Origin: a virus
Taxonomy: Duplodnaviria; Caudoviricetes
Length of the DNA: 24,949 nucleotides
Virus record (IMG/VR): IMGVR_UViG_3300033076_001297
Coordinates: 1 to 24,949 of that record
Direction: 5' to 3' (one strand)
Shown: positions 6,509 through 24,949 of the stretch, one piece after another
Position numbering within the stretch: position 1 is the stretch's first letter
Layout: each line of letters opens with the position of its first letter
The notes under the pieces: model-generated
Seen by the model: the letters and a program-made list of their open reading frames with translations, nothing else
What the model was told of the DNA's origin: nothing
Database searches by the model: none
Program-made: the position numbers and the translations under genes

Positions 6509-6514
6509 GATAGA

Positions 6515-6598: not shown

Positions 6599-6607
6599 TT
6601 ACACAAA

Positions 6608-6635
6608 GTTATACAAAAACCTCCGTATTTTGCAA
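6608..6635 (-). promoter_or_regulatory. sigma70-like promoter TTGCAA-N16-TATAAC
   Basis: Lies just after the capsid terminator and has the same architecture as the site at 8817-8844. Confidence 0.45.
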
Positions 6636-6636
6636 A

Positions 6637-6668
6637 CAAAAAGCCCCCAATACTCTGGGGGCTTTTTG
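6637..6668 (-). terminator. Intrinsic terminator after the major capsid gene (possibly bidirectional)
   Basis: CAAAAAGCCCCCA-atactc-TGGGGGCTTTTTG: a GC-rich stem with T-tracts on both strands. Confidence 0.85.
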
Positions 6669-6685
6669 CTGCTATGGGAAAACGG

Positions 6686-7603: not shown

Positions 7604-7619
7604 AGTTCAGGTCCTCCTG

Positions 7620-8222
7620 TTAATCGTTGGTGGCGACAGATGCCTTGTACTGGGCCTCGTTGAGTCTCACAGAGACAACAACGTACGGATCAGTAAGAGC
7701 ATCACCGATGTTGTAACCGAAACCGGTGATCTGGAACTGACCGGTTTCTCCAGTGCCTACGGCAGTGGTGATCTGGGCATTGCTGAGACCAGTGCTGGTG
7801 GAGCCACCGACGGAGTCGAAGGTCCAGTCGAATTCAGCGCCGACGTAGGTCTGGATCGAAGTGCCAGAGCTCGGATTGGTCAGCTGAACATCGTAGATGG
7901 TCTCGGGGTCATCGTACACGTATGCAACGATGCCGGTGGCCGAAGTGCCGGTCGGCCAGAAGTTCGACACAGTGGGTTTACCCTGTGCGTCCTTGTACTC
8001 GACGCCGGCAAAAATGCCGAGGATTTTGACGCCCGCGATGGTGCCGGTACGCAGGCCATCGCTGGTCCCGAGTACGATGGTGCCGTCGGACGCAATTTTC
8101 ACCGGGTCGCCAATGAAGATATTGGTGGCCAGACCCGTGGTGATGGTGTAGGCTTTCGGGCGCATCTGACCACTGTTGTGGTACGATGGGCGAAAGCCAA
8201 AGGGTGCGCTAAGCGAAGACAT
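7620..8222 (-). CDS. Putative capsid cement/decoration protein
   Basis: 200 aa, beta-rich ('APFGFRP', 'IFIGDPV', 'GIFAGVEY', 'YVYDDP'), immediately upstream of the major capsid gene. Confidence 0.65.
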   Translation of the reverse strand: MSSLSAPFGFRPSYHNSGQMRPKAYTITTGLATNIFIGDPVKIASDGTIVLGTSDGLRTGTIAGVKILGIFAGVEYKDAQGKPTVSNFWPTGTSATGIVAYVYDDPETIYDVQLTNPSSGTSIQTYVGAEFDWTFDSVGGSTSTGLSNAQITTAVGTGETGQFQITGFGYNIGDALTDPYVVVSVRLNEAQYKASVATND

Positions 8223-8256
8223 AGGTAGCTCCTAAGTTGAATTGTTGTCGTCAGGG

Positions 8257-8787
8257 TTATTCCAAATCGAAGGACATATCCCTTTCACGTCCTAGTTCCC
8301 GGATACCCTCGCCGATATCGATTCGTGACTTCGATGCTTTTGCCTGCTCCTCCAAGAACTCTGCCGTATCGGTGAGCTTCTCTTCTTCACGAAGCGGGGC
8401 GTTGTAGTGGACTTCCTTCATGAACTTTTCGTACAGGTCAATCGGAATCTTGAACGCAAGCATTTCATTCACGCCGATGAATCCTGCCCAGTCGCCAGTC
8501 TTCAGAGTGGCGTATTCCCAGCCGGGAACGTCTTCCGGCTTCACGGGCTCATATCCAAGGCGCAAACGCGTCTGGATGGTGTCTCGAGGGTTCGTCGTCG
8601 TCAGCCAGCACAAGTGCCAGCCCGGAATCTTCGGCAAGTCCGGCAATGCGGACTGATAAAACTGTTGACGGAACATTTCAACCCGCTCGTCATCGGAGAG
8701 CTCGCGGTTTTGAGTAGCTTCCCTATCTTCTACTGCGCGATTGCGGCGACCTTCGCCAGCGGATTTTTTCAGTCGTTCGTCATTCAT
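8257..8787 (-). CDS. Phage head-module hypothetical protein
   Basis: 176 aa (PKIPGWHLCWL...RLGYEPV) with an AAGGAG RBS. Confidence 0.8.
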   Translation of the reverse strand: MNDERLKKSAGEGRRNRAVEDREATQNRELSDDERVEMFRQQFYQSALPDLPKIPGWHLCWLTTTNPRDTIQTRLRLGYEPVKPEDVPGWEYATLKTGDWAGFIGVNEMLAFKIPIDLYEKFMKEVHYNAPLREEEKLTDTAEFLEEQAKASKSRIDIGEGIRELGRERDMSFDLE

Positions 8788-8816
8788 AGTACTCGCTCCT
8801 TCAGCGATTAAGTTAA

Positions 8817-8844
8817 TTTATACAATAATTTTAGATAAAAGCAA
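8817..8844 (-). promoter_or_regulatory. sigma70-like promoter TTGCTT-N16-TATAAA
   Basis: AT-rich gap upstream of the capsid gene cluster. Shares TTGC-N16-TGTATAA with 6608-6635. Confidence 0.45.
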
Positions 8845-8849
8845 GCGCT

Positions 8850-9809
8850 TTATTGCTGTTTGTGCTGCTTATCGTACTCGGCGTACCTCTTCACGTACTT
8901 CATACGGAGGACCGGGTCGTCCCAGACGCCGGCTTCGATAAGCGCCTGTTTACGCTCCGGGCTGATGTACACCTCTTTCTTGGTACTTGCCGGCGCATGC
9001 TCTTTTCCGCTACCTACTGCCGGACCCCTTCGTGGCTCACGAGGCTGTTCAGTCTGGAACCTTTCGGGAAGCCTGCGTGCCGTGCGCTTGCGCAACTCGT
9101 TCCAGTACTCCTCGCTGCGCGGATCAAAGCCTTCTCTGCTGAGCGACTGATCGATAGCCATGACGATAGCCGAATCCTCATCGCGGCCTTGCACGTCGTA
9201 CCATGGGTTATCTCTGGTAAACGCCTGCGCGTACTGAAGCGTCTTATCGTCAATCGATGGCGATTGTGGCTGTTGAGGCTGCTGCGCCGGAGGTACCGAC
9301 TGCTGCTTTTTGAGTTTGAGCTGCTGGATTTTTTCCGCAGCCTCATCTCTAAAGCGGAGTGCTTGCGCTGCGTCCTCTCCATTTCCCGCTTCGATTGCCC
9401 GTGCGAGAACCTTGCTGGCCATGTCCATGTCCCGGGACGCCTGTCCTATCGCATTATCGATCGCGGCTATATCGCCATTGTGTGACCGCTGCTCCTGAGC
9501 TGTCAGCCTGCGTTCAAGATCGTCGTTCCTTTTTCGCAGAAAATCCATTTCGAGCTTGTCTCTCTTGATGGCCTGTTCCCTGCGCTCCTTGCGATCTTGC
9601 TTCTCTTTGCGACGACGCTCCCTTATGGCCTCCCTGTCTTCGTCGTCCGTCGATTGCTGAATCCTTTCATCGTCATCATCGTCGTCATCGTCGTCGTGAT
9701 TTACAACGACTGGCTTTTTGGGCTCCTCTTCGGCAGGCGGAGTCTCCTGCGTTTTCGGTTCTTGCTCGACAATAATGATGTCGTCATCCTTTTCAATGAT
9801 GTCTGCCAT
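8850..9809 (-). CDS. Putative capsid scaffolding protein
   Basis: 319 aa with a very acidic N-terminus (poly-D), a long coiled coil and a short C-terminal helix. Lies between portal and major capsid gene. Confidence 0.7.
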   Translation of the reverse strand: MADIIEKDDDIIIVEQEPKTQETPPAEEEPKKPVVVNHDDDDDDDDDERIQQSTDDEDREAIRERRRKEKQDRKERREQAIKRDKLEMDFLRKRNDDLERRLTAQEQRSHNGDIAAIDNAIGQASRDMDMASKVLARAIEAGNGEDAAQALRFRDEAAEKIQQLKLKKQQSVPPAQQPQQPQSPSIDDKTLQYAQAFTRDNPWYDVQGRDEDSAIVMAIDQSLSREGFDPRSEEYWNELRKRTARRLPERFQTEQPREPRRGPAVGSGKEHAPASTKKEVYISPERKQALIEAGVWDDPVLRMKYVKRYAEYDKQHKQQ

Positions 9810-9825
9810 CAGTCATCTCCTTTTG

Positions 9826-10248
9826 TTAAATGAATGCCCTGACTGCGAGCGGATCACCCGTGACCCGGCCGATAATGTCAAGATCGTTAAAAATCACGAA
9901 CATCGCATTTTGATCTTCGCCTTCTTCATCTCTGTACGGAACTTCCCATCGGTCGCCACCGTACTTGGGCACCCTGACGAAATCGCCTTTTTCGCACCAG
10001 CTACCTTCGGGCCACGACTGCATCGTATCCCTGTTTTTGAATGCGAGAGGGCCTACGCTGATCACCTTAGCTACCTGAGTGTTCCACTTTTCGGTGTCCT
10101 TGGTCTCTGCGTGCAGGATGATGCCACTCTTTGTTTTGTTCTTTGGCGTACGGATCTGAACCAGCACGCGGCTGCCGAAAGGCTGTACGCCCGCGTCTAC
10201 CGCGGGGAAAGCCTCCGCTAACGCGTGCTCAGATGTCATTGTTACCAT
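9826..10248 (-). CDS. groES: Phage GroES/Cpn10-like co-chaperonin
   Basis: QPFGSRVLV...KTKSGIIL...AKVISVGP...KGDFVRVPKYGG matches the Cpn10 signature (PLxDRVLV, TxGGIIL, VxAVG, GDxVxxxKYxG). Confidence 0.85.
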   Translation of the reverse strand: MVTMTSEHALAEAFPAVDAGVQPFGSRVLVQIRTPKNKTKSGIILHAETKDTEKWNTQVAKVISVGPLAFKNRDTMQSWPEGSWCEKGDFVRVPKYGGDRWEVPYRDEEGEDQNAMFVIFNDLDIIGRVTGDPLAVRAFI

Positions 10249-10426
10249 GTTGCTCTTCTTTGGTTAGGTTGATGAGTACTTCGATTGCAGCTTCATATCC
10301 GGCAATCATTCCAACGCGGAGCCCATACTCAAAAGCATCGCGTTCTTGGGGCCGCTTCAAGGCATCGAGGGCATACTGCGCCTGTTCTGCCTTGAGGCGG
10401 TTCAAGAGTTTTGTCTCGAAGTTCAT
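10229..10426 (-). CDS. Small helical hypothetical protein
   Basis: 65 aa ('FEYGLRVGMIAGY'), overlapping both neighbours. Confidence 0.75.
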   Translation of the reverse strand: MNFETKLLNRLKAEQAQYALDALKRPQERDAFEYGLRVGMIAGYEAAIEVLINLTKEEQHGNNDI

Positions 10427-10563
10427 ACGACTTCGGTTAGGATTTCAGCCTTTACGACTTCGAGTACACCAACGATCGCGGCTGCCGGGAGCCCGTTCTC
10501 GCATCTCTGCTTGTCGATAATAGCCATAATCTCCGCCCTTACACTTTCGATCTTGTCGTTCAT
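10423..10563 (-). CDS. Small hypothetical protein
   Basis: Likely start is ATG 10563 (MNDKIESVRAEIMAIID..., 46 aa), 4 nt after the upstream stop. ATGA overlap with the next gene. Confidence 0.55.
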   Translation of the reverse strand: MNDKIESVRAEIMAIIDKQRCENGLPAAAIVGVLEVVKAEILTEVV

Positions 10564-10567
10564 AGCC

Positions 10568-10720
10568 TTACTTTTTGGGTTTAGTGACTTGCTTGTCTGC
10601 GCTCTGTGTCTTTTTCGGCACATACTGGCCGTCGCATTTTTCACCTGCGGCCATACGCTTGTGCTGCGGCACATCGGCGCTATTGAGTTTGACCTCTTTT
10701 CCTTTGGTGTCGTCTGCCAT
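10568..10720 (-). CDS. Small basic hypothetical protein (not in the ORF track)
   Basis: Manual translation gives MADDTKGKEVKLNSADVPQHKRMAAGEKCDGQYVPKKTQSADKQVTKPKK (50 aa), with an AGGAG RBS. Confidence 0.65.
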   Translation of the reverse strand: MADDTKGKEVKLNSADVPQHKRMAAGEKCDGQYVPKKTQSADKQVTKPKK

Positions 10721-10734
10721 GGTTGTTCTCCTGT

Positions 10735-13248
10735 TTAGGGTCTTGGGTTGATTCCGGTTCCTGTTTCCATTCCTACTTTCTCGCCTGACTCGATCTCTGC
10801 GGCCGAAATGGTCATTGCAGTCTCGTTGTCCGACATATTCATACGCTCGCGAGCCTCGATCTCCTCTGTTGTGCGTGCATTCTCCTCCTGCTGTTTCGTC
10901 TGCTCGGTCTGCATACGTGCCATGATCTCCTGCTGCTTGCTCGCCAGTTTTTCCCTTTCAAGCTGCATTTTGGCTTCGAGTTCCGTCATGTTGAACTGAG
11001 TCTCAACATCTATCTTCCTCATCTCGACCTGAAGCTTCTGCTGTTCGATCTGGGCCTGCGTCTGTACTGTTTGCGTCTGTACTTGGGCATTTATCTGAGC
11101 CACCTGCAGCGAATTATCAGGCGGAAGCGGAGGCTGCGGTTTGTACTGCTGTGCCTCCTGATCAATTTTGGTAAGCTGATCAGCAAAGCTCATGAGTTGC
11201 TGTTCGATAAGCTTCTGTACCCTCAGCACCATGTCAACCTGTGGATTCGCATCATCAGCTATCAGGTTTTCCCGTGTCGCCTTTTCGACAGCCGTGTGCG
11301 CTTCGACAAGATAATAATTCAGCAGATGATCCCTAAGATGAATTGACATCGGGTAGAGGAACGTCTTGATTATCGCCGGGTTCGACCCGAACAGCGGAGA
11401 CGACAAGAACTGGATGTGTGTAGCGATATGCGCTACATGCTCCTGCCTTGGCAGTACATATATCGGTCTACCCATGGCCGCCGCTACGTTCTCGCTTACG
11501 GGGTCCATGTCTTCACTTCCCGGCGCCGGCAATAGTACTTCGTCTGACGGAACCTTCATGGCCCTGAGGAACATCTGTTCGACCTTGCGTGCGTCGTACA
11601 TCTGCGGGACCACGGCGGTACGTTGCATGATCGCCTGAACCTGAGCGAATCTTTGCGTTTCCGAGAAGATACCCGGGTCACTCACCGGGACGATGTCCAT
11701 AGGCCCGTCGAAATCGCTCGGATCGATATCGATGTCGCCTATCTGCATGCGTATGTCCTCTTCCGTAAGATAGGCGCTGTTGATCCTGTGCAGGACGTTC
11801 AGGCACTTGGTCATGGATGCATGCAAGCGGCTGTGAATCGAGCTGAACACCACCATGCCCTGTTCGATGAGCGCCATGGTGGTACCGACCGGTTGCTGCT
11901 GACTGGTGTCTGAAAGCTTCTCGAAGCTGGTCTGGATCACGCCTTTGCCCGCTTCGACAAGGAATCCAAGGAGCTGGAACAGCGTGGCGCTGGGCCCCGC
12001 GAAAGGAAGAGGCATCGCCAGTTTTCGTACGTCGTCGACGATTGCGCCGCCATCGAGCTCTACGATCTCAGTCGGTTGGACGTTGATCGTCTGGCCCCCG
12101 GGGCCACCTTTGAGCTTCAGAAGCGTGGGGATGTTCTGGATATGGGCACTGTCCAGAAGCGCACGTAGCGCCCCCGTGGCTGCGCCTGACAGGCCACCGA
12201 TCATGTGCGTGAGGCCGATCGGGTACGCTCCGCGCCAAGGCACGAAAGGGAACTCGACAATCCAGTCGAGCTCTTTTTTCATTTCGTCACCCGGCTCCCA
12301 GTTGCGGTAGAGCGCCAGAGGCATCATCGAGTTCTTGTCGATCGATATGATGTACGGCTCGTACCCGTCTTCGAAGTCGATATTCGTGTAGACCTCGTAG
12401 ATTACGCGCAAGCCGTCTTCATTGTAGGCGCTTTCCTCCCTGCCTTCGATCTTGTCATTGGCCTTGGATGCTCTGCTGTACTCCGGTTCAAGCGATGCTC
12501 CGAGGTTGATGTCGACGTACATGCCCTTTTTGATGCGCTGCTGGTACTCCATGCTGGTGATGTACTGCACATGCGTTTTCCTCTCTGCCGTGTAGAAATT
12601 CGTGGCAGCAAAAGGCAGATAAATGTCGTCAATGGCGATGAACTCGCTTGTAGGCCGGCGATACCTATCGTCCCACATGAACTTCATGTACTGGCCGCCG
12701 CCGAGGGGGAGCTGAGTCGTAAGCTGCTCGAGTTCGCTTCGGAATTCAGTCATCTGCTGCGTGAGCTGCCAGTTCATGAATTCCGTTTTGCGGTCCGCCT
12801 TTTCGATCTTTCGCTTGTCCTGCTCGCCTACGATCTTGCTTCTGACCGGGCCTGTTGGCGGGAAGAGCTCCTTCATGGTGCGGGCGCTGAAGTCGACACA
12901 CGACTCCACGAGCAGAGGGTGCACCACACGGTTCGCACCGGTGAACTGCGCTCCGCCCGGCGCGTCATCACCGAGCCCGGTTCTGCGAAGTCCCTCTTCG
13001 TACTGCTTGTCACGCTTCTGTCGTGCTTCTTTGTCTCTATCGATCTTCTCGAGAAGCTCAGCTACGACCGTCTTCAGCTTCGACTGGTCGACTTCTTCGA
13101 TGATATTGGCGAAATGCTTCAGATGGCGCCTTTCATCCTCGTCATTTTTGAGCCTGATAACCGCGCCGCCGTCCTCGGTATCCTCTACTTCGGGGGCGTC
13201 ATCTTCAAGCTTTACGGTTTCGCCTTGTACCTTCTGTTCTTCTTCCAT
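10735..13248 (-). CDS. Portal protein (P22-like, long C-terminal coiled-coil barrel)
   Basis: 837 aa ('VVHPLLVESCVDFSAR', 'YPIGLTHMIGGL', 'PVGTTMALIE') with a Gln-rich coiled-coil tail. Lies downstream of TerL. Confidence 0.88.
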   Translation of the reverse strand: MEEEQKVQGETVKLEDDAPEVEDTEDGGAVIRLKNDEDERRHLKHFANIIEEVDQSKLKTVVAELLEKIDRDKEARQKRDKQYEEGLRRTGLGDDAPGGAQFTGANRVVHPLLVESCVDFSARTMKELFPPTGPVRSKIVGEQDKRKIEKADRKTEFMNWQLTQQMTEFRSELEQLTTQLPLGGGQYMKFMWDDRYRRPTSEFIAIDDIYLPFAATNFYTAERKTHVQYITSMEYQQRIKKGMYVDINLGASLEPEYSRASKANDKIEGREESAYNEDGLRVIYEVYTNIDFEDGYEPYIISIDKNSMMPLALYRNWEPGDEMKKELDWIVEFPFVPWRGAYPIGLTHMIGGLSGAATGALRALLDSAHIQNIPTLLKLKGGPGGQTINVQPTEIVELDGGAIVDDVRKLAMPLPFAGPSATLFQLLGFLVEAGKGVIQTSFEKLSDTSQQQPVGTTMALIEQGMVVFSSIHSRLHASMTKCLNVLHRINSAYLTEEDIRMQIGDIDIDPSDFDGPMDIVPVSDPGIFSETQRFAQVQAIMQRTAVVPQMYDARKVEQMFLRAMKVPSDEVLLPAPGSEDMDPVSENVAAAMGRPIYVLPRQEHVAHIATHIQFLSSPLFGSNPAIIKTFLYPMSIHLRDHLLNYYLVEAHTAVEKATRENLIADDANPQVDMVLRVQKLIEQQLMSFADQLTKIDQEAQQYKPQPPLPPDNSLQVAQINAQVQTQTVQTQAQIEQQKLQVEMRKIDVETQFNMTELEAKMQLEREKLASKQQEIMARMQTEQTKQQEENARTTEEIEARERMNMSDNETAMTISAAEIESGEKVGMETGTGINPRP

Positions 13249-13269
13249 AATAGGTCTTTTAATAAGCGG

Positions 13270-15546
13270 TTAGAGGTTTTCGGTCGTAATATCCTGTGGG
13301 GGCGGTGCATAGTCGAAATCCCAGTATCCTGTGTGCTTTCTCAGCAGATCCGGGTCGGCTTCAGCGCCTTCACTCTTGAACGACACCTGATTTCCGTGTA
13401 CGTCTGTTCCTATATAGTGATAGTCGTCACCAACCTTGGTCACGTTAAGCTTAGGGACTCTTTCTCCCTCGCTCCACGGTATACCAACGTCGTAATGGCC
13501 TTTTCCGTAGCTCAGGCCCATCATCTCGAATGGTACTCCTGCTGACTTCTGCCAGTATTCCGGATCAAACATCGGATGGTTCATGAGCCACTCTGTCGGC
13601 TGATCGGCACGCAGTTCGTTTACCCTTTGTATCTGTTCGTTTACATTACGCATGTACGATTTATACCCTTCTTCTTCAGGGGACAATTCGTAGAACAGCG
13701 AAGGATCTCGTTGCGACCGTACGACATTGGACTCTACCAGAGGATTCGTGCCTTGGGGGTACTCCGGATACTTCTTGAGTATCTCGTGCCCTATTTCGTG
13801 CAAAACCAATTTTCTTGGCTCGTCCGACTCTTCGTACGCATACTCTGGGTTCAGTGATATCGTCTTTTTGTGGGACTGACCCATAACGCCTGTTCCCATG
13901 AACTCAGGGTTCATCTTTAACGCTATATCGCGTAATTCCGGATCGAGGGCAAAAAGTTCAGGGTGTTCGAGCTCAGTGCCTAGTGTGATCTTTTCACCCG
14001 CGTTACCCCAGCTCCGGGATAGCTTCTCCAGTTCTTTCGCCCATTTATATCCTGACGCCTCCATCGCGTTTTGAATGTCCAGAATAGGGTGTTGAATCGC
14101 CATAACCGACGAGTAACTATGCGGATTTCGGCCCATGATGCGGATGAAATCTTCGATCGCGGGGCCAAGTGTTTTATGGTCCTCCTCCATGATGGCCCTC
14201 AAGTGGATCGCATCTGTGTACATCCGGTTCATGTCCTTGGCCTGCTCAACATATGGTTTCTGCACTTTTTCGGTCAGCGTCTTGAACAAATCGATCGTGG
14301 CGTTCTTATCACTTATTTCCGAAAAAGGAAGATCAGGTCTTCCGGGAGGAAACTCAACATTGTACGTCCTCTTCACCTCGCGTGGAGATTTCCCTTTTGC
14401 GAGCGCTTCTCTGGCCGCATTGACGATGGCTTCCGTATTCTCCTTGTGGTACATAGACGCCGGCATCATCATGCGTAAGGCGCCCGTGGCCCCTTTTGGT
14501 GTGCCAATAATTCCTGCTGCCGTGCCTGAGCCCATGAGCGTCAGCGGAATGTTGTTGACGTCCTCGATGCTGTAGTCGACCCCTTCCGCTGCAGCTTTTG
14601 GCGTGTAAAGCGCTTTTGCTGCTTGGTATATTGGCTCCGGCATTGTAATGCCTTCTGACGTTACCCGGGGAAGAATCGCGGGACGTTTCAGACCCGGTTC
14701 CATCTTGGTGTGCTCGTACAGGTACCGCTCCATCGGACTTGCGCTTTCCCACCGGGTAGCCAGATCCGGACCTTTCTCTTTTTTCGGTGCCACCCGCGTT
14801 GAGTCAGCGCCCGCGTACTTTTTCCTCAGGCTGGCCAGACTCACCGAGCCGCCGTTGGCGTACCCTTTTTCCCCCGCTCTACGCATGATCTTACGCACGT
14901 AATCCTGAGTCTCTTTGAACGGAGGTATGCCCTTATACTTCTTGACATTGGCAGGGCCTGCATTGTACGCGGCCAAAGCCAAAGGGAGCGATTTGAACTC
15001 GTCCATCTGCATGCGGAGATACTTCGCTCCACCCTCAAGGTTCTGGATTGGATCGTTCCTGTTTACGACGCCCATGGCCTTCGCAGTGGCCGGCATGAGC
15101 TGCGTCAATCCAACGGCTCCCTTTTTGCTGACTGCGTTCGGATTTCCGCTGCTTTCTTTTTGCACCAAGGCCCTGAATATGTTCTCTGGGACGTTATACT
15201 TCTTGGCTATTCGCGATATGTCATCTGACACCTGCGGTACCCGCGCTGGCTGAGGGGGCGCCTGTGAGGGCGCCTGCTGACTCGCTGGTCGAGCGTTGAT
15301 TGTCGGATTCGGTATGGCGCCCTCGAAGTTGTACTGAACATCCTCGAGCCTTTGCGGTGGGCTGGACGTTCTTCGCATCGCCTGAACAGCTTTCTGGTAC
15401 ATTTCCTGTTCCGCTGTTTGCTGTTCTGCAGATCTTTGCTGCGCGACCTGCAGATTCGCCACGCTTTCCTGCATGCTGTCAAATCGCTTTTTGCGATCAG
15501 ACAGATATTTTTGCGTGAGCTCGTCCAATTCTGGGTTAAACGGCAT
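13270..15546 (-). CDS. Multidomain virion/ejection-type protein: soluble lytic transglycosylase domain plus C-terminal HEXXH zincin-like domain
   Basis: Likely start is ATG 15546 (758 aa). SLT motifs [24 protein letters not shown] and ETQDYV lie at ~14870-15220. HEIGH is at 13786-13800. Confidence 0.8.
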
Positions 15547-17107
15547 ACGGATTGACCCTTTCCTTTGATCTGGGTTTACGCTCTTCAACGTCCTTGGCTT
15601 TCGGGAGTTCGAACCAACGATCGTTTTTCAAATAGATAATGGCCTGCGTGAACGTGTCGACGTAGTCGTCATGATCCGCAACAGGAAATTTAGCTAATTG
15701 TTTGATAAAAGTGTTAGCCCAAGATACATGTCTTCCGGGATTTTTTGCCGATTCAGGGATCCATATGATCTCAAGTTCCAGCGTCGGAGATGCCTGATGC
15801 GCGCGAGAAATCTTGTCCGCTTTACCCGGATTGTAGCCTATGGCCGGCACTTTTGCCAGTCTCAGGTCCTGTAGAAGCGATTGACCGCTTGCTTTCGCCT
15901 CGACGAGCACCCTATCGGGCCGTTTTGGCCTGTTGAACGCTGACTTTTCGCTCATTCCACCATATTCGACCGTCCAATCGTTAATCGCGCGTTTTCTGAG
16001 CTCCGGATACGTCAAATGCTCATCCCAAGCATCGATAAGCATGACATTTCGCTTTCCATTGTAGGTAAAAATGGCCCAGACTGAGCATGCTGTCGGGTCA
16101 CCGGTTGTTTTTTCCGTGAACGCGCAGTCGTATGACTGCAGGATGAACTCGAATTGCGGAAGCGCCTTGTCGTGTGGCCACAACTTAAAGAACTGTGTCT
16201 TCAGGATACCACCGCCGGTGGGTGTCGGATCCTGCTGTAGCTGTCCGCTCGAACCATAAACGCCGAGTAACTGCTTCAGCTCGGTCATTTCCTTCTCCCC
16301 GAGTCGCTCCGGACAGATCAGGTCGCCTACATTCTGCCTCGGATCGTAGTAACCAAGGGACGTTTTTCGCTTGCCACCGTCATACTCAGCCGGGATCATC
16401 AAATGTTCCCACCCTCGTATGTCATCCAGAATGTGACCGCTGATGTCACGCTCATGCAGTCGCTGCATGATGGTCACCATGGCGTCCGTCTTGGCGTTAT
16501 TGAGTCGTGTCGACCATACCATGTCGAACCATTCCAGTGCAGTCTCTCTGACGACGTCCGATTGCGCCTCCTGAGCCGAGTGAGGGTCATCGAGCAGCAG
16601 TCTGGAGCCGCCTTCACCAGTGGCCGTACCGCCTACTGACGTGGCAATTCGGTAACCGGTGTGGTCGTTCTCGTATCTCTGCTTGGCGTTCTGGTCTCCA
16701 GATAGCTGAAATCTGTCCCCCCATCGTTCCTGATACCATGGGCTTTGGACAAGACGCCGGGCTTTCAGGTTGTCGCGAGTCGCCAGTGTTCCTGAGTACG
16801 ACGCGCACAGGAATTTTTCCTCCGGGTGCAAAATCCACTCCCACATCGGCCAGATGACCGATACGATAGTGGATTTGCTCATCCTCGGCGGGATGTTGAT
16901 GAGCAGTCGCTTTATGTCTCCATTGGTGACCGCTTCAAGGTGCTGACAGATGACCTCGATATGCCATCCCCCTACGAATGGCACGCCGGGTTCGACGACG
17001 TGCCACGCCTGTTTGACGAACTCGTACAGCGAAACCTCCGCCAGCCGGCGTTCCTCTTCCTTCCTGATCAGGTCAAGAAGTATCTCAGGGCTTGGCTGTG
17101 AGATCAT
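15536..17107 (-). CDS. terL: Terminase large subunit
   Basis: Likely start is ATG 17107 (ATGA overlap; 523 aa). Walker A variant IPPRMSKS, Walker B LLLDD, coupling motif MQRLH, nuclease acidic motifs SYDCA and HDDYVD. Confidence 0.93.
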
Positions 17108-17370
17108 ACGAGTATGTCGATGTCCATAGATGTGATGATCGGCAATACGTGCGTTGGGGGCACATACTGCGGTTGGATAGTGTAGTGCGGGGGCCACTCA
17201 GCTTTTCGTCTTTCTTCCGCCATCCTCTCAAGCGTCTCGATCGCTTTATTCTTCTCTTCTCGCCTTTTCTCCTCTTTCTTCATCTCGGTTACTGATTCGG
17301 TCAGCTTATCGATTGAAGCGGTGAGACTTTGCAGCATGCCGATCATCACTTCGAACTGTTTCTCGTTCAT
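17104..17370 (-). CDS. Hypothetical coiled-coil protein between terS and terL
   Basis: 88 aa with a GGAGGAG RBS and ATGA overlaps at both ends. Confidence 0.7.
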   Translation of the reverse strand: MNEKQFEVMIGMLQSLTASIDKLTESVTEMKKEEKRREEKNKAIETLERMAEERRKAEWPPHYTIQPQYVPPTHVLPIITSMDIDILV

Positions 17371-17867
17371 TGCTCTCCTCCCGCTGCTTTCTGCAGCATT
17401 TGTTTCATTTGTTGAAGTTCTTCGTTGGTCAATCCTCTGAAGTCCACCGCGGCCAGCGTTATCGGGCCGCCGTTGGCGCCCGTGTGCTCGTTTTTGATCG
17501 TCTGCGTAGTTTGCCAGCCGTGCTTATGCTTGAGGATCTCCAGTGCAATCTTCGGGTCTCCCGGTACCGTGTGCTTTACACCGTTATTATCCATAAACGT
17601 TCGAGGGAACGCCGACAGATTCAGACTCTTGGCCAGCTGTACCTCTGCGTCCGCTTTTCCGGCGATCACCGCGTGTTCGACTCTTGCGTCGAGCTGAAAC
17701 AGCTGGTTGTACTCCGAAAGGGTCAGACCTGCGTGGTATGCCAGGCTTTCGGCCTGCAGACCGAGCTTGCTGCCCTCGTACAGTTTGTCGAGGACCTCTT
17801 CGGTGGCCTTTATCTGCCTCGGCTCATAGGTGAGCGAGTATACCCGATGTTGAAGGCTGTTACTCAT
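17367..17867 (-). CDS. terS: Putative terminase small subunit
   Basis: 166 aa. HTH-like N-terminus and C-terminal 'EHTGANGGPI...LTNEEL', typical of TerS-like proteins. Upstream of terL. Confidence 0.7.
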   Translation of the reverse strand: MSNSLQHRVYSLTYEPRQIKATEEVLDKLYEGSKLGLQAESLAYHAGLTLSEYNQLFQLDARVEHAVIAGKADAEVQLAKSLNLSAFPRTFMDNNGVKHTVPGDPKIALEILKHKHGWQTTQTIKNEHTGANGGPITLAAVDFRGLTNEELQQMKQMLQKAAGGEQ

Positions 17868-18705
17868 TGATCATTCGTCCGTTGATTACCCAGTCGTCGT
17901 TCTCGTCGTAAACGGTAACCCATGGGTGCTTGTCATCCCCCCGGGCCGCATAGTCAAAAAATTCGCATTTATCCAGATCAATTACAAGACCATCTACTCG
18001 CGTGAACAATCCTTTCCTACTCGGCAGATCGACACGATCCTCGATATTGGGCTCTTCGACCGGGGCTGGAGTCGGAGCTGGAGCTGGAGCTGGAGCTGGA
18101 GCTGGCATGATCAGTCCATACTTTGCCAGACACTCTCCTACCTCACTCTCCGGTACCGCTACAAGAAACATATTGAAATGCGGCGTGTAGACGAGCTCTG
18201 GTGTTCCTGCACACCACCACATTTCAGTAGATGCTCTCCTGAAATGTATGAAAGGATTTTTAACCGCGCGACCCGTTTCGTCTACATGATCATACCGGAC
18301 ATTTGTTCCCTCTAAATCGGCCAGATCAAAAACCTTGGCGTTATCGTGATTCTGCAGCCAAACAGGCGGCTCGATCTTGGCGCTTTTCTTGGTGGCGACC
18401 GGTTCGCGTTTCTTGGCGGCGACCGGTGCGCTTTTCTTGGTGGCGACCGGTGCGCTTTCTTCCGCGATGGCAGGGATTCTCTCAGCGAAAAACTCTTTTT
18501 TGAGTTTCAACCGGGGCGCTCTGAGCCTGTTTTTCTTTCTTTCTACCAATTCACTTCGAAACGCTTCGAATTTCTCTAACGCTTCAGCCTGTAGTTCTTC
18601 TCTGTAATCGAGGAGCTTTTCCCTGATCTCATCGGCCTGTTGCGTTGTTTCATGCGTCCCTATGAAAAATCGGTAACCGAGAAAACAGACAGTATTGCTT
18701 GCCAT
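17860..18705 (-). CDS. Hypothetical protein with low-complexity linkers; possible N-terminal AP2-like DNA-binding motif
   Basis: 281 aa. Three copies of (A/E)PVA(T/A)KK(S/R), a PAPAPAPAP tract, and 'FFIGTHETTQQA' loosely like the AP2 G-x-F-x-T-x-E-E-A motif. Confidence 0.6.
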   Translation of the reverse strand: MASNTVCFLGYRFFIGTHETTQQADEIREKLLDYREELQAEALEKFEAFRSELVERKKNRLRAPRLKLKKEFFAERIPAIAEESAPVATKKSAPVAAKKREPVATKKSAKIEPPVWLQNHDNAKVFDLADLEGTNVRYDHVDETGRAVKNPFIHFRRASTEMWWCAGTPELVYTPHFNMFLVAVPESEVGECLAKYGLIMPAPAPAPAPAPTPAPVEEPNIEDRVDLPSRKGLFTRVDGLVIDLDKCEFFDYAARGDDKHPWVTVYDENDDWVINGRMINE

Positions 18706-20827: not shown

Positions 20828-21047
20828 ATGCGCGAAAACGCGCCCGGTTGAAAACCCTTATGAGGTCTGGGTTGCTGGTTCATGGACGTGGAAAGTCCTG
20901 AAGAAATACCAGACGCCCGAGAACGAAGCGAAAAACCCGTACGCACGTTGGTTCTGTGCGGTATCGTCTCCGCACACGTTCGGCGGGTATGACTTGGGTG
21001 ATGTGTACGTCCGGGATATTACCGAGAACGCAGTGCGAATATCCTGA
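20814..21047 (+). CDS. Hypothetical Trp-rich phage protein
   Basis: Likely start is ATG 20814 (77 aa; KTRPVENPYEVW...WKVLKKYQ...YARWFCAV). The stop is followed directly by repeat copy 1. Confidence 0.75.
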   Translation: MAKNECAKTRPVENPYEVWVAGSWTWKVLKKYQTPENEAKNPYARWFCAVSSPHTFGGYDLGDVYVRDITENAVRIS

Positions 21048-21107
21048 AGCACTACGGCCACGCAAGATGAGGTGGCCGCCAGTCAACCAACAAAAGGAGG
21101 AACAGAG

Positions 21108-21287
21108 ATGAAACAGTTTAGCGAAAAGGCACTTGGTGAAAACATCATCATATGTCCGCATTGCGGCGGTGAGGTTGAGTTCGAATTTCTCGAACAAAAC
21201 GGCGCCGGTGAAATATGGATCGATGTTTGCTGCCTTGACTGTCACGAATCATCTACCTACTATTTCGACGTGACACGCGTCGAATAG
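21108..21287 (+). CDS. Cassette 1: small zinc-ribbon protein
   Basis: The ATG follows the repeat RBS; 59 aa, CPHC...CLDC. Confidence 0.8.
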   Translation: MKQFSEKALGENIIICPHCGGEVEFEFLEQNGAGEIWIDVCCLDCHESSTYYFDVTRVE

Positions 21288-21352
21288 CTCAACACGGCCA
21301 CGCAAGATGAGGTGGCCGCCATTCAACCAAAACAAAAAAGGAGGGACGACAA

Positions 21353-21760
21353 ATGGGAAACAGAGCAGTCATCACGGCAGACGAAAAAATCGGTATTTTT
21401 CTGCATTGGAACGGCGGCCTTGAAAGCGTGCTTGCATTCTTGCAGATAGCGAAAGAACGCGGGTACCGAGACCCGGTAACGGCACATCCATCATATGGCA
21501 TGGCACGTCTTACGGGATTGATCCATGAGTATTTCGGTACACGCTCACGTACGTCCGTAGGTATCGGAACGCTTGAAAGTCTCGACGTTCAGAACGGCGA
21601 CAATGGGCTGTATATTCTCGGGCCTGAGTGGACGATCAAGCAGCGAAAGTATTCATGTAGCGACGGCCTTAAGACTGTCGACTGCTTGGGTGAATCCGAA
21701 ATGGAGCAGTATAAAGCTATGCTTATCAGTATGCGAAAGCTCCCGGTCACAGGCTGTTAG
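21353..21760 (+). CDS. Cassette 2: hypothetical phage protein
   Basis: 135 aa, MGNRAVIT...IFLHWNGG...GDNGLY. Flanked by repeats. Confidence 0.85.
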   Translation: MGNRAVITADEKIGIFLHWNGGLESVLAFLQIAKERGYRDPVTAHPSYGMARLTGLIHEYFGTRSRTSVGIGTLESLDVQNGDNGLYILGPEWTIKQRKYSCSDGLKTVDCLGESEMEQYKAMLISMRKLPVTGC

Positions 21761-21820
21761 CTCAACACGGTCACGCAAGATGAGGTGGCCGCCAATCAAC
21801 CAACAAAAGGAGGGACGACA

Positions 21821-22282
21821 ATGAAGCAAACCACGCGATTAGAAGCTTACAAAGCTATTGCCGAAGGTAAAACGGTAAAGCTGGTCTATCTGTCTTCAGA
21901 TGGAACCCGGTCCTTTTTACTGTATCACCCATCGGACGATAAAAAGAAGCGATTGGTTACAGGCAGCGGTGGCGACACATGGGAAATGAGCCCTGAGGGC
22001 CCGACGGATAAGCACAGCACAAGCGATCGCTGGTATATCATACCTGAACCGGTCAAAAAGGTGAAAACCAACACGGAATACCTTAGGGAGCCAACACGGT
22101 GCCCGGTATGCGATTATCCGGGTTTGACCGGTAAAAGCCTCGTGTCGGACGGAGGTAAAGAGGCATATCAATCGATAACCTGCAATCGCTGCGAAGCTAC
22201 GTGGGATGACTATTATTCTCTTACGAGTTATGGAGATCTCAAGAACGCACAAGGCGATAAGCTCGAAGTAACTTACGATTGA
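21821..22282 (+). CDS. Cassette 3: two-domain protein (cassette-6-like domain plus zinc ribbon)
   Basis: ATG 21821 follows the repeat RBS; 153 aa, with C-terminal CPVC...CNRC. Confidence 0.85.
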   Translation: MKQTTRLEAYKAIAEGKTVKLVYLSSDGTRSFLLYHPSDDKKKRLVTGSGGDTWEMSPEGPTDKHSTSDRWYIIPEPVKKVKTNTEYLREPTRCPVCDYPGLTGKSLVSDGGKEAYQSITCNRCEATWDDYYSLTSYGDLKNAQGDKLEVTYD

Positions 22283-22345
22283 TCAGACACGGCCACGCAA
22301 GATGAGGTGGCCGCCAATCAACCAACAAAAAAGGAGGGACGACAA

Positions 22346-22843
22346 ATGGGATGGCTCATAAACACGCATGATCGCGGGTATCGCTATTCGAACGCCGAGA
22401 TACGGAAGTATTTCGAAAGTAGATTCAATAGCGTCAAAATACTTCATCTGTCTGTGTACGGTTTCTCCGAAGTCTATATGGCTTGTGAACATCCATGCAG
22501 ACCGGGTGAAGTGTTTGCCGTAGTCTGTCTTATCCGAAACACCAAAAAGGAGTTTGGATATAAGGATATGTCTGAAGATATGGGGCCCTATTGTTACAAT
22601 GCGCCAAAAAAGATACTCGACTTGCTGACGCCTATTGATAGCAAGTACGCAAACGAGTGGCGGGCTGAGTGCAGGCTCCGTATGGACAAGCTTCGCAGGC
22701 TGAGAAAAGGCGAAATATTCACGTACGGTCTGGCAAGGTACAAACCGGTAAAGGTGACAAGGTCAACCGTAATTGTAGATGAATTAAACACCCGGCTCAG
22801 GTACAGGGTACCAACCGCCCGGATATTCGATCAGATGGAGTAA
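22346..22843 (+). CDS. Cassette 4: DUF6927-like protein
   Basis: 165 aa. 'VFAVVCL...FGYKDMSEDMGP...ILDLLT...ANEWRAEC' is recognised from memory as a plasmid/phage DUF6927-type motif. Confidence 0.7.
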   Translation: MGWLINTHDRGYRYSNAEIRKYFESRFNSVKILHLSVYGFSEVYMACEHPCRPGEVFAVVCLIRNTKKEFGYKDMSEDMGPYCYNAPKKILDLLTPIDSKYANEWRAECRLRMDKLRRLRKGEIFTYGLARYKPVKVTRSTVIVDELNTRLRYRVPTARIFDQME

Positions 22844-22904
22844 CCAGACACGGCCACGCAAGATGAGGTGGCCGCCATTCAACCAACAAAAAGGAGGGAC
22901 GACA

Positions 22905-23309
22905 ATGGGGTATTATGTAAGCTACGTAATCGATACGACCGTGGTCGAGGGAAATGAAGCTGAAGCGCTTGCGACTATCAACGCGCTTCACACGCCAAAA
23001 ATCATGAAACTACTTGGCGGCGGCAGTCATGGCTATTCGTGGGTGCGCAACCCGCCCGAAGGTGAATTCAAAACGCTTGAAGAGGCATTTGCCGCTTGGC
23101 GGTTTGAGTTTTTCCCGGAAAACAACAGCTTCAACTTTGTCGGTGAAAAGCTGGGGGACGAAGAAGTCCTTTTCAACGCGCTCGCGCCCTATCTCACCAT
23201 CGGGGACATTTACGGACGTGGGGGCGACGGTGCTGAATGGGGCTACCGTTTTACACCGGGGTGCCCAATGATCCATCTGTCCTGTGTGAAAACGTGGGTC
23301 GAAGATTGA
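22905..23309 (+). CDS. Cassette 5: hypothetical acidic phage protein
   Basis: 134 aa ('YSWV...GEKLGDEEVLFNALAPY...GxDGAEW'). Flanked by repeats. Confidence 0.8.
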   Translation: MGYYVSYVIDTTVVEGNEAEALATINALHTPKIMKLLGGGSHGYSWVRNPPEGEFKTLEEAFAAWRFEFFPENNSFNFVGEKLGDEEVLFNALAPYLTIGDIYGRGGDGAEWGYRFTPGCPMIHLSCVKTWVED

Positions 23310-23374
23310 CCAGACACGGCCGCGCAAGGCGAGGCGGCCGCCAACCAACCAACACAAAAAAGGAGGGACGATAA

Positions 23375-23608
23375 ATGGAAAACATTACCAAAAGGGAAGT
23401 TACGCGTGAACAAGCTGTCGATGCGATTTTCTGCGGCATCCCGGTGATGCTTGAGTATGAAAATGAAGACGGTGAAAAACGGCAGCTCAGGTATAAGACC
23501 CTATGGGGAATTCCCATGGTTATTGGACAGTGTGCAATGTGGACCATGCACCCGAACGGACCGGACGATCCGCCGGACCCGAACGACAAATGGTTCATTC
23601 TGGAGTAA
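23375..23608 (+). CDS. Cassette 6: hypothetical protein, paralogue of the cassette 3 N-domain
   Basis: 77 aa; aligns by eye with residues 1-76 of 21821..22282. Confidence 0.8.
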   Translation: MENITKREVTREQAVDAIFCGIPVMLEYENEDGEKRQLRYKTLWGIPMVIGQCAMWTMHPNGPDDPPDPNDKWFILE

Positions 23609-23670
23609 CCAGACACGGCCACGCAAGATGAGGTGGCCGCCAATCAACCAACAAAAAAGGAGGGACGACA

Positions 23671-24078
23671 ATGGCATACATAGGACAGAAAGAAAAAGCC
23701 GAGCTCATGCCGGCGATCAAGGCCGTACTGGACAAGTACGGACTGAAAGCCACGGTTGCTATCCGCCACCACATGGACCTTGTTATCACGATCCGCGCGG
23801 GTAAAATCGATCTGGTGAATGAATATGCGGTTTTATTGGAAACGTATGATTTCGTTCTTGCCAGCGCAGTCAGGCGCGAAGGGATGTTCCAAGTGCACAA
23901 TCCGAAAGCCAGCGGGTTCCCGGAAAAGCTGAAAACGCTTTTTTGCGAACTCGACAAAGCGGCGAAAGGTGATAAATGGTACGATCGATCGGATATCATG
24001 ACTGATTATTTCGATACCGCGTACTACATCACGATAAACGTTGGAGACTGGCGAAAACCGTACAAGTATTTGCCGTAA
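23671..24078 (+). CDS. Cassette 7: hypothetical phage protein (possibly LPD29-related)
   Basis: 135 aa, MAYIGQKEK...IKAVLDKYGLK...WYDRSDIMTDYFDTAYY. The family name is tentative. Confidence 0.8.
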   Translation: MAYIGQKEKAELMPAIKAVLDKYGLKATVAIRHHMDLVITIRAGKIDLVNEYAVLLETYDFVLASAVRREGMFQVHNPKASGFPEKLKTLFCELDKAAKGDKWYDRSDIMTDYFDTAYYITINVGDWRKPYKYLP

Positions 24079-24135
24079 CGACCACGGCCGTGCAAGATGA
24101 GGCGGCCGCCAACCAACCAACAAAAGGAGGGACAA

Positions 24136-24441
24136 ATGAACGAATGTGTGGTACAGATCAAGGAGCACCGCAGGAAGATAGCGAAGCTTGAAAAAGATTT
24201 CGCAAAACGCGGTCCGCAGTCCACCGTCTGGGGTTTCATGGTCGACCTCTTTTATGGGGGTAATAAGGAACCCGACGTTGAGCGCATAACCATTGGCTCA
24301 ATAGCTGACCCGGAAGGCACAGGCCAGGCACTTTACGATATGGTATTGGCAAGCCTGAAAAACGGGCTGAAGTTCTGGGAAGATGCTGCAAAAAGAGACC
24401 TTGCCGAACTTCAGGAAACACTGTACAAAAAGGAGGCCTAA
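24136..24441 (+). CDS. Cassette 8a: hypothetical protein
   Basis: ATG 24136 follows the repeat RBS; 101 aa. Confidence 0.8.
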   Translation: MNECVVQIKEHRRKIAKLEKDFAKRGPQSTVWGFMVDLFYGGNKEPDVERITIGSIADPEGTGQALYDMVLASLKNGLKFWEDAAKRDLAELQETLYKKEA

Positions 24442-24696
24442 GTGTATACGATATCTGAACTTATTACGGACCTTCAGCGTGCAATGAATGATCCCGATGA
24501 ACCGGTTCTGTTCGCAGGACTGTACACGCTGAACGATGTTCAGGCGCAAGCGATCGAAAGCGGGAAGCTGTGCACGCGTGAAGATGCAACAAAAATTCTT
24601 ATGGCTATTGACATAAGGATTTGCGACGGTTATATTCAGGATAGCATACGCGATGATATGGCGGAGGCTATCGACGCGCTTGATGACGATGACTGA
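24442..24696 (+). CDS. Cassette 8b: small acidic hypothetical protein
   Basis: GTG start directly after the upstream TAA, with its own AAGGAGG RBS inside the upstream gene. 84 aa, D/E-rich. Confidence 0.75.
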   Translation: MYTISELITDLQRAMNDPDEPVLFAGLYTLNDVQAQAIESGKLCTREDATKILMAIDIRICDGYIQDSIRDDMAEAIDALDDDD

Positions 24697-24755
24697 CTCA
24701 ACACGGCCGTGCAAGATGAGGCGGCCGCCAACCAACCAACAAAAAAGGAGGGACA

Positions 24756-24949
24756 ATGATATCGAACAAAAAATACGTAGGTAGTCAAGGTTGTCCAGTC
24801 TGCAGCGAGTTATGTATACAATATGAGGCATTTTTTGTAGATGCGGATGAAACCGGAACTTTCGCGTTTCAGTCAGCTACATGCCCCACTTGCGGGACGT
24901 CTTGGCTTGACCGCTACACGTTTACAGGGCTGTCTGATGTCGAAGATAA
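24756..24949 (+). CDS. Cassette 9 (partial): zinc-ribbon protein, paralogue of the cassette 3 C-domain
   Basis: Manual translation gives MISNKKYVGSQGCPVCSELCIQYEAFFVDADETGTFAFQSATCPTCGTSWLDRYTFTGLSDVED..., open to the window end. Confidence 0.8.
   Translation, partial: MISNKKYVGSQGCPVCSELCIQYEAFFVDADETGTFAFQSATCPTCGTSWLDRYTFTGLSDVED

Follow-up and report, generated by a model that had tools for sequence, protein, structure and literature searches.

Several kinds of stem-loop between genes have been described. In T4-type phages, PeSLs combine a strong sigma-70 promoter with a stem-loop shown to terminate transcription (PMC2839356; PMC4122927). Ribosome termination structures (RTS) are stable folds located right past the stop codon where the gap to the next gene is at least 25 nt and absent where genes abut; they were described as a loosely defined tendency to fold, seen across genomes, and a synthetic operon was used to test them (PMC7518266). 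Intergenic hairpins without a U-tract have been described as blocking 3' exonucleases and as shielding 5' ends (PMC5927463), and phage mRNAs carry tetraloop hairpins, including UUCG in T4 and GNRA loops, the latter making RNA contacts (PMC4371310).

Here we analysed a stretch of 24,949 nt from an uncultured tailed phage (the window), in which nine near-identical repeats of ~60 bases lie between small genes, all nine on the plus strand and none on the minus strand. The gap between the flanking genes is 57-65 nt at every repeat. The letters of the nine hairpins, and of every substitution named in an initial annotation of this DNA, were confirmed in the sequence. The units, each running from the stop codon to the Shine-Dalgarno (SD) sequence and start codon of the next gene, are as follows.

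21045..21110, plus strand: spacer unit 1; TGA, 7 nt, hairpin 21055-21078, A/C linker, SD GGAGG, ATG
21285..21355, plus strand: spacer unit 2; TAG, 7 nt, hairpin 21295-21318, linker, SD, ATG
21758..21823, plus strand: spacer unit 3; TAG, 7 nt, hairpin 21768-21791 (one U-G pair), linker, SD, ATG
22280..22348, plus strand: spacer unit 4; TGA, 7 nt, hairpin 22290-22313, linker, SD, ATG
22841..22907, plus strand: spacer unit 5; TAA, 7 nt, hairpin 22851-22874, linker, SD, ATG
23307..23377, plus strand: spacer unit 6; TGA, 7 nt, hairpin 23317-23340 (A-U to G-C swap, two loop changes), linker, SD, ATG
23606..23673, plus strand: spacer unit 7; TAA, 7 nt, hairpin 23616-23639, linker, SD, ATG
24076..24138, plus strand: spacer unit 8; TAA, 6 nt, hairpin 24085-24108 (swap and U-G), linker, SD, ATG
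24694..24758, plus strand: spacer unit 9; TGA, 7 nt, hairpin 24704-24727 (swap and U-G), linker, SD, ATG

Nine of the eleven junctions in the array carry a unit, and at the remaining two the genes overlap or abut. Another copy lies downstream of g9, past the end of the window, in two other samples (contigs X2 and X7); the whole spacer, not the hairpin alone, is present at least ten times. The array genes and their surroundings are listed below.

449..18705, minus strand: virion module of a tailed phage, divergent from the array
15536-17197, 10735-13248 and 6686-7603, minus strand: terminase large subunit, portal and major capsid genes
20621-20827 and 20814-21047, plus strand: first two array ORFs (the former phrog_19182), overlapping, no repeat between
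21108..21287, plus strand: g1, 59 aa, Zn-ribbon-like (weak Pfam matches under cut-off)
21353..21760, plus strand: g2, 135 aa, unknown function, 208 homologues
21821..22282, plus strand: g3, 153 aa; N-terminal half like g6 (E 0.01, weak), C-terminal half like g9 (E 5e-7)
22346..22843, plus strand: g4, 165 aa, phrog_21047, unknown function
22905..23309, plus strand: g5, 134 aa, no family match
23375..23608, plus strand: g6, 77 aa, no family match
23671..24078, plus strand: g7, 135 aa, phrog_10415, unknown function
24136-24441 and 24442-24696 (GTG start), plus strand: g8 and g8b, abutting, no repeat between
24756..24949, plus strand: g9, Zn-ribbon-like, runs past the window end

The unit resembles PeSLs, as those elements are described, in spanning the distance from the upstream stop to the SD and start codon in all nine copies. 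It differs from them in having no promoter match and no U-tract, and its stem keeps a set distance from the stop codon; those of PeSLs shift position around the promoter. The published operational definition of an RTS asks for a gap of at least 25 nt and at least five consecutive 40-nt windows of negative dLFE opening between -10 and +20, one of them at or below -6 kcal/mol (PMC7518266). In our re-implementation, which used 20 shuffles and left the downstream coding part unshuffled, all nine junctions fit this definition, with runs of 18-31 negative dLFE windows and minimum dG of -11.8 to -17.1. Compared with RTS as set out in that work, one copied sequence is held here at a near-exact 7-nt register, and its block to re-initiation is putative. 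As an intercistronic stem-loop without a U-tract, no more than 15 nt from the stop, the hairpin is also like the malE REP-type barrier and the papA-type shield (PMC5927463; PMC12306157). In the published accounts, however, such elements guard a single part of an operon in bacteria (PMC5927463), whereas here almost every gene has one; moreover, the repeat has no sequence relationship to REP, and its A/C linker has no U-rich RNase E motif. Where the tetraloop hairpins known from phage mRNAs are of the C(UUCG)G or GNRA type (PMC4371310), the element has a 10-nt loop opening with GCAA and is repeated as a whole spacer.

The statement in the initial annotation that no U-tract follows the stem on either strand was borne out, the 8 nt past the stem holding 0-2 T on the plus strand and 3-4 T on the minus strand, and a terminator scan called none of the nine hairpins. 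Scanning positions 18600-24949 for sigma-70-like promoters returned 10 sites, compared with 8.5 +/- 3.0 in shuffles, and none was inside a repeat. We infer that the array forms one early polycistronic transcript. Rfam covariance models gave 11 matches up to E=10, none overlapping a repeat, and ARAGORN detected no tRNA. An RBS insulator, a hairpin keeping the RBS open regardless of the upstream gene, was not supported in silico, as predicted RBS accessibility showed no gain: the native sequence beat the shuffled one in 31 of 81 junction combinations and the deleted one in 37 of 81. Rejected were an upstream ORF starting from the ATG in the loop, as the length of the A-run shifts the frame between copies, and a TIGR-type guide array, as there are no variable spacers within the unit.

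The stem starts 7 nt past the upstream stop codon in eight copies and 6 nt past it in one, and this register is constant across five different spacer sequences and all three stop codons. Spacing to the stop codon had not been mentioned in the initial annotation. Within the window, the fixed spacing could have arisen if the repeat was copied as a block that includes the stop codon: six of the nine upstream genes end in D/E, and bases common to copies 5 and 7 run on into the gene end. We surveyed viral sequences for stems with a GCAA tetraloop and a downstream AGGAG, a selection blind to stop codons, and found that 63 of 108 distinct matches start 5-9 nt past a stop. At the level of clusters the figure was 38 of 75, against 15.8 +/- 3.4 expected from uniform placement within the gap, and none of 200,000 simulations reached 38; this within-gap null was used in place of one in which most sites were intragenic (71% had no stop). 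The peak persisted for tails with at most three T (28 of 49). Among other pre-RBS hairpins in 377 viral loci, 31 of the 63 with a nearby stop lay 4-10 nt past it, with a mode of 7. UNCG loops occurred 11 times on the sense strand and their reverse complements once (P=0.006; the 11 include two close relatives); nine of these 11 hairpins were 4-10 nt past a stop. A short GC stem after the stop and before the next RBS is thus found in many uncultured phages. Because arrays of non-identical hairpins at two loci, L230 and L293, hold the 6-7 nt register, copying alone does not account for the spacing. At loci with g2 homologues (n=82; 80 prokaryote genome assemblies and 2 phage records) the peak was broader, with 19 of 52 hairpins at 7-11 nt, 2 of 52 at 7 nt and none at 5-6 nt. 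We found no description of a 6-7 nt register in phages in a literature search conducted largely without subscription papers, which does not imply that it is unpublished.

Beyond close relatives of the window, searches of viral, metagenome and genome contigs and of phages did not recover the exact repeat family. Searches for the loop plus linker in viral contigs gave no matches; with the loop plus SD there were 27 matches, all of them single and none in an array. The degenerate hairpin gave 13 single matches in metagenome contigs, none with linker or SD and taken as chance, and none in genome contigs; blastn of the stem arm against phages returned one weak match (E 0.5), and no g2-related loci were found in viral contigs. 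With the exact family seen only in close relatives, the cross-phage support is by analogy.

Taken together, the position shared with unrelated phages and the sense-strand UNCG loops suggest that the element is likely a structural mRNA punctuation hairpin, and on this comparative evidence it is probably a roadblock just past the stop that shields and separates each gene. The GC-rich stem, 6-7 bases past the stop, would fold in the mRNA and is predicted to remain folded just outside the terminating ribosome. There it would shield the 3' end of the finished gene from exonucleases and would halt ribosomes sliding into the next gene, which would start afresh at its own RBS. Among these roles, the exonuclease barrier is predicted to outweigh the scanning barrier, and the hairpin presumably acts through position and stability more than through loop sequence. 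The mRNA stabilisation suggested in the initial annotation is therefore retained as part of the best explanation; its route through a cut site found no direct support.

The same annotation had argued for an RNA hairpin from plus-strand-specific covariation of the stem. All changes do keep pairing, in 63 of 63 stem cells on the plus strand (7 pairs in nine copies), but the claim was overstated, as there are 4 substitutions in 3 events. Four of the seven pairs are constant, two have changed at a single partner (C-G to U-G) and one at both (A-U in six copies, G-C in three). The compensatory swap counts as one inherited event, since copies 6, 8 and 9, which share it, also carry T>C at the unpaired linker column +28; one C>T substitution is common to copies 8 and 9 and a separate one is in copy 3. 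With substitutions placed at random within the stem, the probability that all keep plus-strand pairing is 0.010, 0.036 or 0.087 at transition fractions of 0.57, 0.8 or 1.0, and that of keeping pairing on either strand is double these values; the strand preference alone comes down to two wobbles (P=0.25). The flanking A(-1)/C(+24) is invariant, a mismatch on the plus strand and a G.U pair on the minus strand. The common copy is predicted to fold slightly better on the minus strand (-14.3 vs -13.7 kcal/mol on plus), and the three wobble copies better on the plus strand (-11.0 vs -7.1 and -13.0 vs -11.2 kcal/mol). In a native context of 145 nt, predicted stem probability is 0.75-0.99 on the plus strand and at least 0.70 on the minus strand in seven of the nine copies. 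In four runs aligned to copy 7, no variant of the stem was seen other than near contig ends, and a contig that keeps the order g2-repeat-g3 (X10) has a Watson-Crick C where copy 3 of the window has T. Covariation in the window thus weakly favours an mRNA-level hairpin; the reading has become likelier through the 6-7 nt register and the UNCG layout of unrelated phages, and we infer that the hairpin forms in RNA.

The initial annotation had also proposed that the element is bound by a protein or cut by a nuclease, and a 10-nt loop read by a phage or host factor (as operator, boxB-like antiterminator or cleavage mark) is an unlikely alternative to the structural roadblock. The invariance of the loop outside copy 6 held up, with eight of the nine copies identical; the loop is larger than the tetraloops of most analogues and contains GCAAG preceded by C in seven of nine copies, a GNRA-like hexamer. 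At the unrelated locus L400, two hairpins have one common loop on different stems. However, its conservation is no stronger than that of the stem (variable columns 2 of 10 vs 4 of 14) or the unpaired linker, and homogenisation accounts for it, so a bound protein is not indicated by loop conservation alone. Analogous hairpins in other phages mostly have 4-nt loops, and many different loops occur at the same position; the unit contains no boxA-like motif beside the stem or elsewhere and matches no Rfam family, and the array genes yielded no match to an RNA-binding protein family, about half the genome being missing. Operator, boxB-like and nuclease-cut versions of the element found no direct support. 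In a lambdoid nut site, boxA lies next to a stem of 5 bp whose GNRA-like loop has 5 nt; the 7-bp stem, the 10-nt loop and the missing boxA-like motif do not agree with this. An RNase III site of the T7 type needs about two helical turns of duplex, for which this single 7-bp helix is insufficient.

Contigs from other samples suggest that genes have been lost or swapped at the repeats. One (X4, side 68) has a g1-repeat-g3 joint that skips g2, although g2 is also present in that contig; another (X7, side 50) has a g5-repeat-g7 joint that skips g6; and in other samples different genes are attached to repeats 8 and 9. These cassette joints come from single contigs of depth 3-4, aligned at a likeness of 80%, and the repeat may have led the assembly to join them as chimeras. 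Within the window, units 4 and 7 have 62 identical nt in common, the longest exact stretch between copies, and units 5 and 7 share a 42-nt identity that reaches the final codons of the gene upstream. The unit has been copied between genes, and from such sequence comparisons it seems likely that it provides a joint at which homologous recombination deletes and swaps them.

These observations also bear on a second doubtful alternative, in which the element acts in DNA only, as a recombination joint or palindromic protein site whose pairing is kept by copying or palindrome correction. Template-switch correction of palindromes can imitate compensatory change, and the three mutational events, the lack of a clear strand bias and the A/C flank that pairs only on the minus strand fit such an origin, as do the long exact stretches reaching gene ends and the joints at repeats. 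This explanation leaves unaccounted for the non-identical hairpins 6-7 nt past stops and the sense-strand UNCG loops of unrelated phages. An integron attC site, in which RYYYAAC and GTTRRRY boxes enclose a long hairpin of the bottom strand and which works with an integrase, was rejected, as attC-type boxes are missing, with no GTT box on the 3' side, and the hairpin is 24 nt. Moreover, tyrosine integrase (PF00589) was found in none of five related phage records, only ~75% identical in terminase, whereas the control matched in 14 of 14 genomes.

Somewhat less probable still is a weak terminator or pause site without a U-tract that grades expression along the early operon. In bacteria with uncoupled transcription, terminators are described as GC-rich stems a few bases past the stop (PMC7858274), the position seen here, and PeSL stem-loops terminate (PMC2839356). 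Thirteen of 73 survey clusters have tails of at least five T, seven of these 13 at the 5-9 nt spacing; since terminator-like tails share the spacing, position cannot tell a barrier from a leaky terminator. The tails here hold few T, and with no promoter in each copy to restart transcription, ten or more serial terminators would have to be very leaky. As to a promoter for a phage-encoded single-subunit RNA polymerase, PF00940 matched none of the five related records, but the control matched no genome either, and about half of this genome is missing.

Finally, a recoding stimulator that fuses neighbouring ORFs by frameshift or by stop read-through, likened here to frameshift geometry, is highly improbable. 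A stem 6-8 nt past the decoding site is the arrangement described for frameshift stimulators (PMC7282821), but only four of the nine junctions are in frame, as by chance and ruling out read-through fusion, all three stops are used, and each downstream gene has its own SD.

Taken as a single element, the proposed hairpin is an ordinary way of punctuating phage genes, and its sequence is new. It is conceivable, and we offer this tentatively, that in many phages an mRNA hairpin is placed almost to the exact base relative to the terminating ribosome (6-7 nt, at the mRNA entrance), actively driving ribosome release and leaving cassette genes to initiate independently, and that this phage has made of it a unit portable by recombination, with a dedicated 10-nt loop, for shuffling an early-gene array. 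The 6-7 nt register in unrelated uncultured phages makes the loosely defined RTS a precise, testable prediction, for which these spacers are ready-made natural test constructs. Moreover, a promoter-less repeat holding a stop codon, a hairpin and an RBS may permit PeSL-like shuffling of early genes, suggesting that cassette shuffling is possible without a promoter for each gene. A punctuation mark defined by position would turn a gene and its spacer into a portable cassette.

The repeat to which the initial annotation drew attention is real, and the mRNA hairpin within it is probably real as well. Nine hairpins lie in the window, all on the plus strand and none on the minus, and every substitution reported among them was found in the sequence. 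The repeat extends beyond the hairpin: a stop codon is followed by a spacer of 6-7 nt, the hairpin (24 nt), an A/C-rich linker, a GGAGG Shine-Dalgarno (SD) sequence and the next ATG, giving a stop-to-start gap of 57-65 nt. It is present at nine of the 11 junctions of an array of small genes, and at the other two the genes overlap or abut. A further copy follows the last array gene (g9) on its 3' side, past the window end, in two other samples. The 24,949-base virus record contains the following features.

449..18705, minus strand: tailed-phage virion module (terminase, portal, capsid, transglycosylase-bearing protein)
9826-10248, minus strand: GroES-like co-chaperonin gene (phrog_3188), inside the head module
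18783-18983 and 19258-19416: tandemly repeated units (30, 14 and 19 nt), separating virion module and putative early arm
19590-20180, plus strand: 590 nt upstream of the array with no clear gene
~20080-20165, plus strand: tRNA-like fold closed by an 8-bp stem, with a T-loop-like hairpin and apparently no D-arm
20181-20605: 13 TGTGGGCA/TGCCCACA sites, both direct and inverted, some of them at a 67-nt period
20621..window end, plus strand: array of 12 small ORFs, function not assigned, divergent from the virion genes
21045..24758, plus strand: the nine repeat copies

The terminase is 73-76% identical to its best viral-contig relatives and 46% identical to that of the best named phage. Judging from the layout, the plus-strand array from 20621 would be the early arm. 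Several of its ORFs have many homologues (375, 57, 12 and 208), indicating that they are real genes. One array gene, g3 (21821-22282), seems to be a fused gene, its N-terminal half weakly like g6 (23375-23608) and its C-terminal Zn-ribbon half like g9 (24756-24949). Upstream, the 590-nt stretch folds much more stably than its shuffled versions (z -4.9), is present in other strains (one at ~90% identity) and had no match among the comparison loci retrieved; it is a candidate structured leader or non-coding RNA. The tRNA-like fold scored 24 bits against Rfam tRNA-Sec, under the cut-off of 47, and ARAGORN reports no tRNA there. The 13 sites look operator- or origin-like, and the tandem repeats are possibly near a genome end.

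The initial annotation had argued from plus-strand-specific covariation of the stem. Pairing is indeed kept in 63 of 63 stem cells (four pairs invariant, two with a U-G variant and one changed on both sides), but the evidence is weaker than had been stated. The two swap columns (+5 and +18) are changed in copies 6, 8 and 9, and so is a column of the unpaired linker (+28), which argues that these copies descend from one variant. Four substitutions are seen, which come down to three events: the swap, a C>T found in both copy 8 and copy 9, and another C>T in copy 3. The probability that random placement in the stem keeps plus-strand pairing is 0.010, 0.036 or 0.087 at a transition fraction of 0.57 (about the value among strains in sequencing run X2), 0.8 or 1.0, respectively, and doubles if pairing on either strand is allowed. 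The substitution pattern is suggestive of a maintained stem. Its preference for the plus strand comes from two wobbles (P=0.25), and the unvarying bases that flank the stem, A on its 5' side and C on its 3' side, could pair on the minus strand only. Four runs aligned to copy 7 gave no per-copy stem variants.

Position is a better clue than covariation. The stem starts 7 nt 3' of the stop codon in eight of nine copies and 6 nt in one, across five spacer forms and all three stop codons, and similar spacers with tetraloops occur in related and unrelated phages. A search that took no account of stop codons, for a GCAA-tetraloop hairpin with AGGAG downstream, found at least 121 loci (~550 estimated in the collection). 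Among the matches listed, 63 of 108 distinct hairpins start 5-9 nt past a stop (mode 6), as do 38 of 75 clusters, against 15.8 ± 3.4 expected when each hairpin is placed uniformly within its own gap (0 of 200,000 simulations). For the same matches, the stem-to-SD distance is flat in these 75 clusters, and the 5-9 nt peak is found with both U-poor (28/49) and U-rich (7/13) tails. With the GCAA motif left out, 377 viral loci yielded 90 hairpins before a ribosome-binding site (RBS); 63 had a nearby stop, and 31 of these lie at 4-10 nt (mode 7). At two viral loci, L230 and L293, several non-identical hairpins each start 6-7 nt past a stop, and block copying is therefore not the sole route to the spacing. 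The register was less sharp at 82 loci around homologues of g2 (80 prokaryote assemblies and 2 phage records), with 19/52 at 7-11 nt, two at 7 nt and none at 5-6 nt; some of these loci have long stems that take in the stop codon. The cross-phage support is one of analogy, without homology. As a separate observation, one loop sequence occurs on two different intergenic stems, long folds starting at the stop codon, at L400:1694-1752 and L400:3481-3538, and long stems of a similar kind follow stops at L417 and L222.

We lean slightly towards a roadblock in the mRNA, defined by structure and position. When the A site is occupied by the stop codon, the stem begins 10 nt past the P-site codon. Frameshift stems are reported to act 11-12 nt downstream of that codon, near the mRNA channel entrance (PMC7282821); the comparison, in which the counting convention may differ, places the stem within 1-2 bases of the entrance. 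This would be about as close as a hairpin can sit without melting at termination. Two known roles call for such a hairpin: a 3' exonuclease barrier, which can also shield the 5' end of the next gene (PMC5927463), and, for ribosome termination structures (RTSs), an obstacle to ribosomes that go on scanning past termination (PMC7518266). The repeat hairpin may serve in the first role, in the second, or in both. REP hairpins at most 15 nt from a stop are reported, second-hand in PMC12306157, to stall ribosomes, so the repeat hairpin could possibly damp the upstream gene. One of the two coupled, repeat-less junctions also folds, at -9.6. A separate proposal, of a hairpin role in keeping the next RBS accessible, found no support in silico and was rejected.

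It is doubtful that the repeat works at the DNA level only. The common copy folds at -14.3 kcal/mol on the minus strand versus -13.7 on the plus, and stem probability in context is at least 0.70 on the minus strand in seven of nine copies; on the plus strand it is 0.75-0.99, and the three wobble copies fold better there. Across phages, once relatives were collapsed, UNCG loops read on the sense strand are commoner than their reverse complements by 11 to 1 (P=0.006, with two close relatives among the 11); for UNCG and GNRA loops together the ratio is 18 to 2. The stability of UUCG is specific to RNA. GNRA loops are stable in both RNA and DNA (PMC4371310). Equally unlikely is a 10-nt loop read by a protein or nuclease: neither the stem nor the proximal linker is less conserved than the loop, whose invariance is explained by homogenisation. 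The protein-bound reading first proposed lacks support, and the repeat does not fit the textbook definitions of a lambdoid nut site (a boxB-like site had been suggested), an RNase III site or attC. The chances of a leaky terminator or pause site are slightly slimmer again; with no U-tract at any of the nine repeats, the intrinsic terminator test fails. A recoding element, of the kind that frameshift stems serve, is very improbable.

Compared with known systems, all nine copies fall within the computational, operational definition of an RTS in PMC7518266, as predicted RTSs, and both repeat-less junctions are of the coupled type. The repeat resembles the PeSL cassettes of T4-type phages in layout and probably in shuffling, but a promoter is a PeSL feature (PMC2839356, PMC4122927), and the repeat is excluded from that class: no sigma-70 promoter was found inside any of the nine copies. 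Rfam gave no match to the repeats, and the family was not found outside close relatives of the window (viral, metagenome and genome contigs; phage blastn). Elsewhere, the loci L101, L126 and L152 carry promoter and hairpin units with TTGAC-type -35 boxes, repeated between small genes; these units seem to be genuine PeSL-type cassettes of uncultured phages.

Shuffling of genes through the repeats is fairly likely. Between copies, exact matches are as long as 62 nt, and copies 5 and 7 stay identical into the final codons of genes that are unrelated. At six of nine repeats the gene upstream ends in Asp or Glu (P=6e-4, a post hoc observation), which suggests that homogenisation extends over the last codon and the stop. 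Candidate rearranged orders come from four further runs (single contigs, depth 3-4, aligned at 80% likeness). In run X4, a repeat links g1 to a variant of g3, with g2 skipped (short side 68 letters), g2 also being covered in that run; in X7, g5 is joined to g7 without g6 (50 letters). Three more joints at repeats have sides under 30 letters, and repeats 8 and 9 also carry unrelated genes. All of these joints are possibly assembly chimeras through the repeat. One contig of X10 has the same gene order as the window. No integrase was found in five related records, making homologous recombination the likelier route.

A literature search, conducted mostly outside subscription journals, found no published statement of a 6-7 nt stop-to-stem register in phages. 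The repeat and its hairpin are a fresh example of a common phage gene punctuation, and the part worth pursuing is the tight stop-to-stem register seen across phages.
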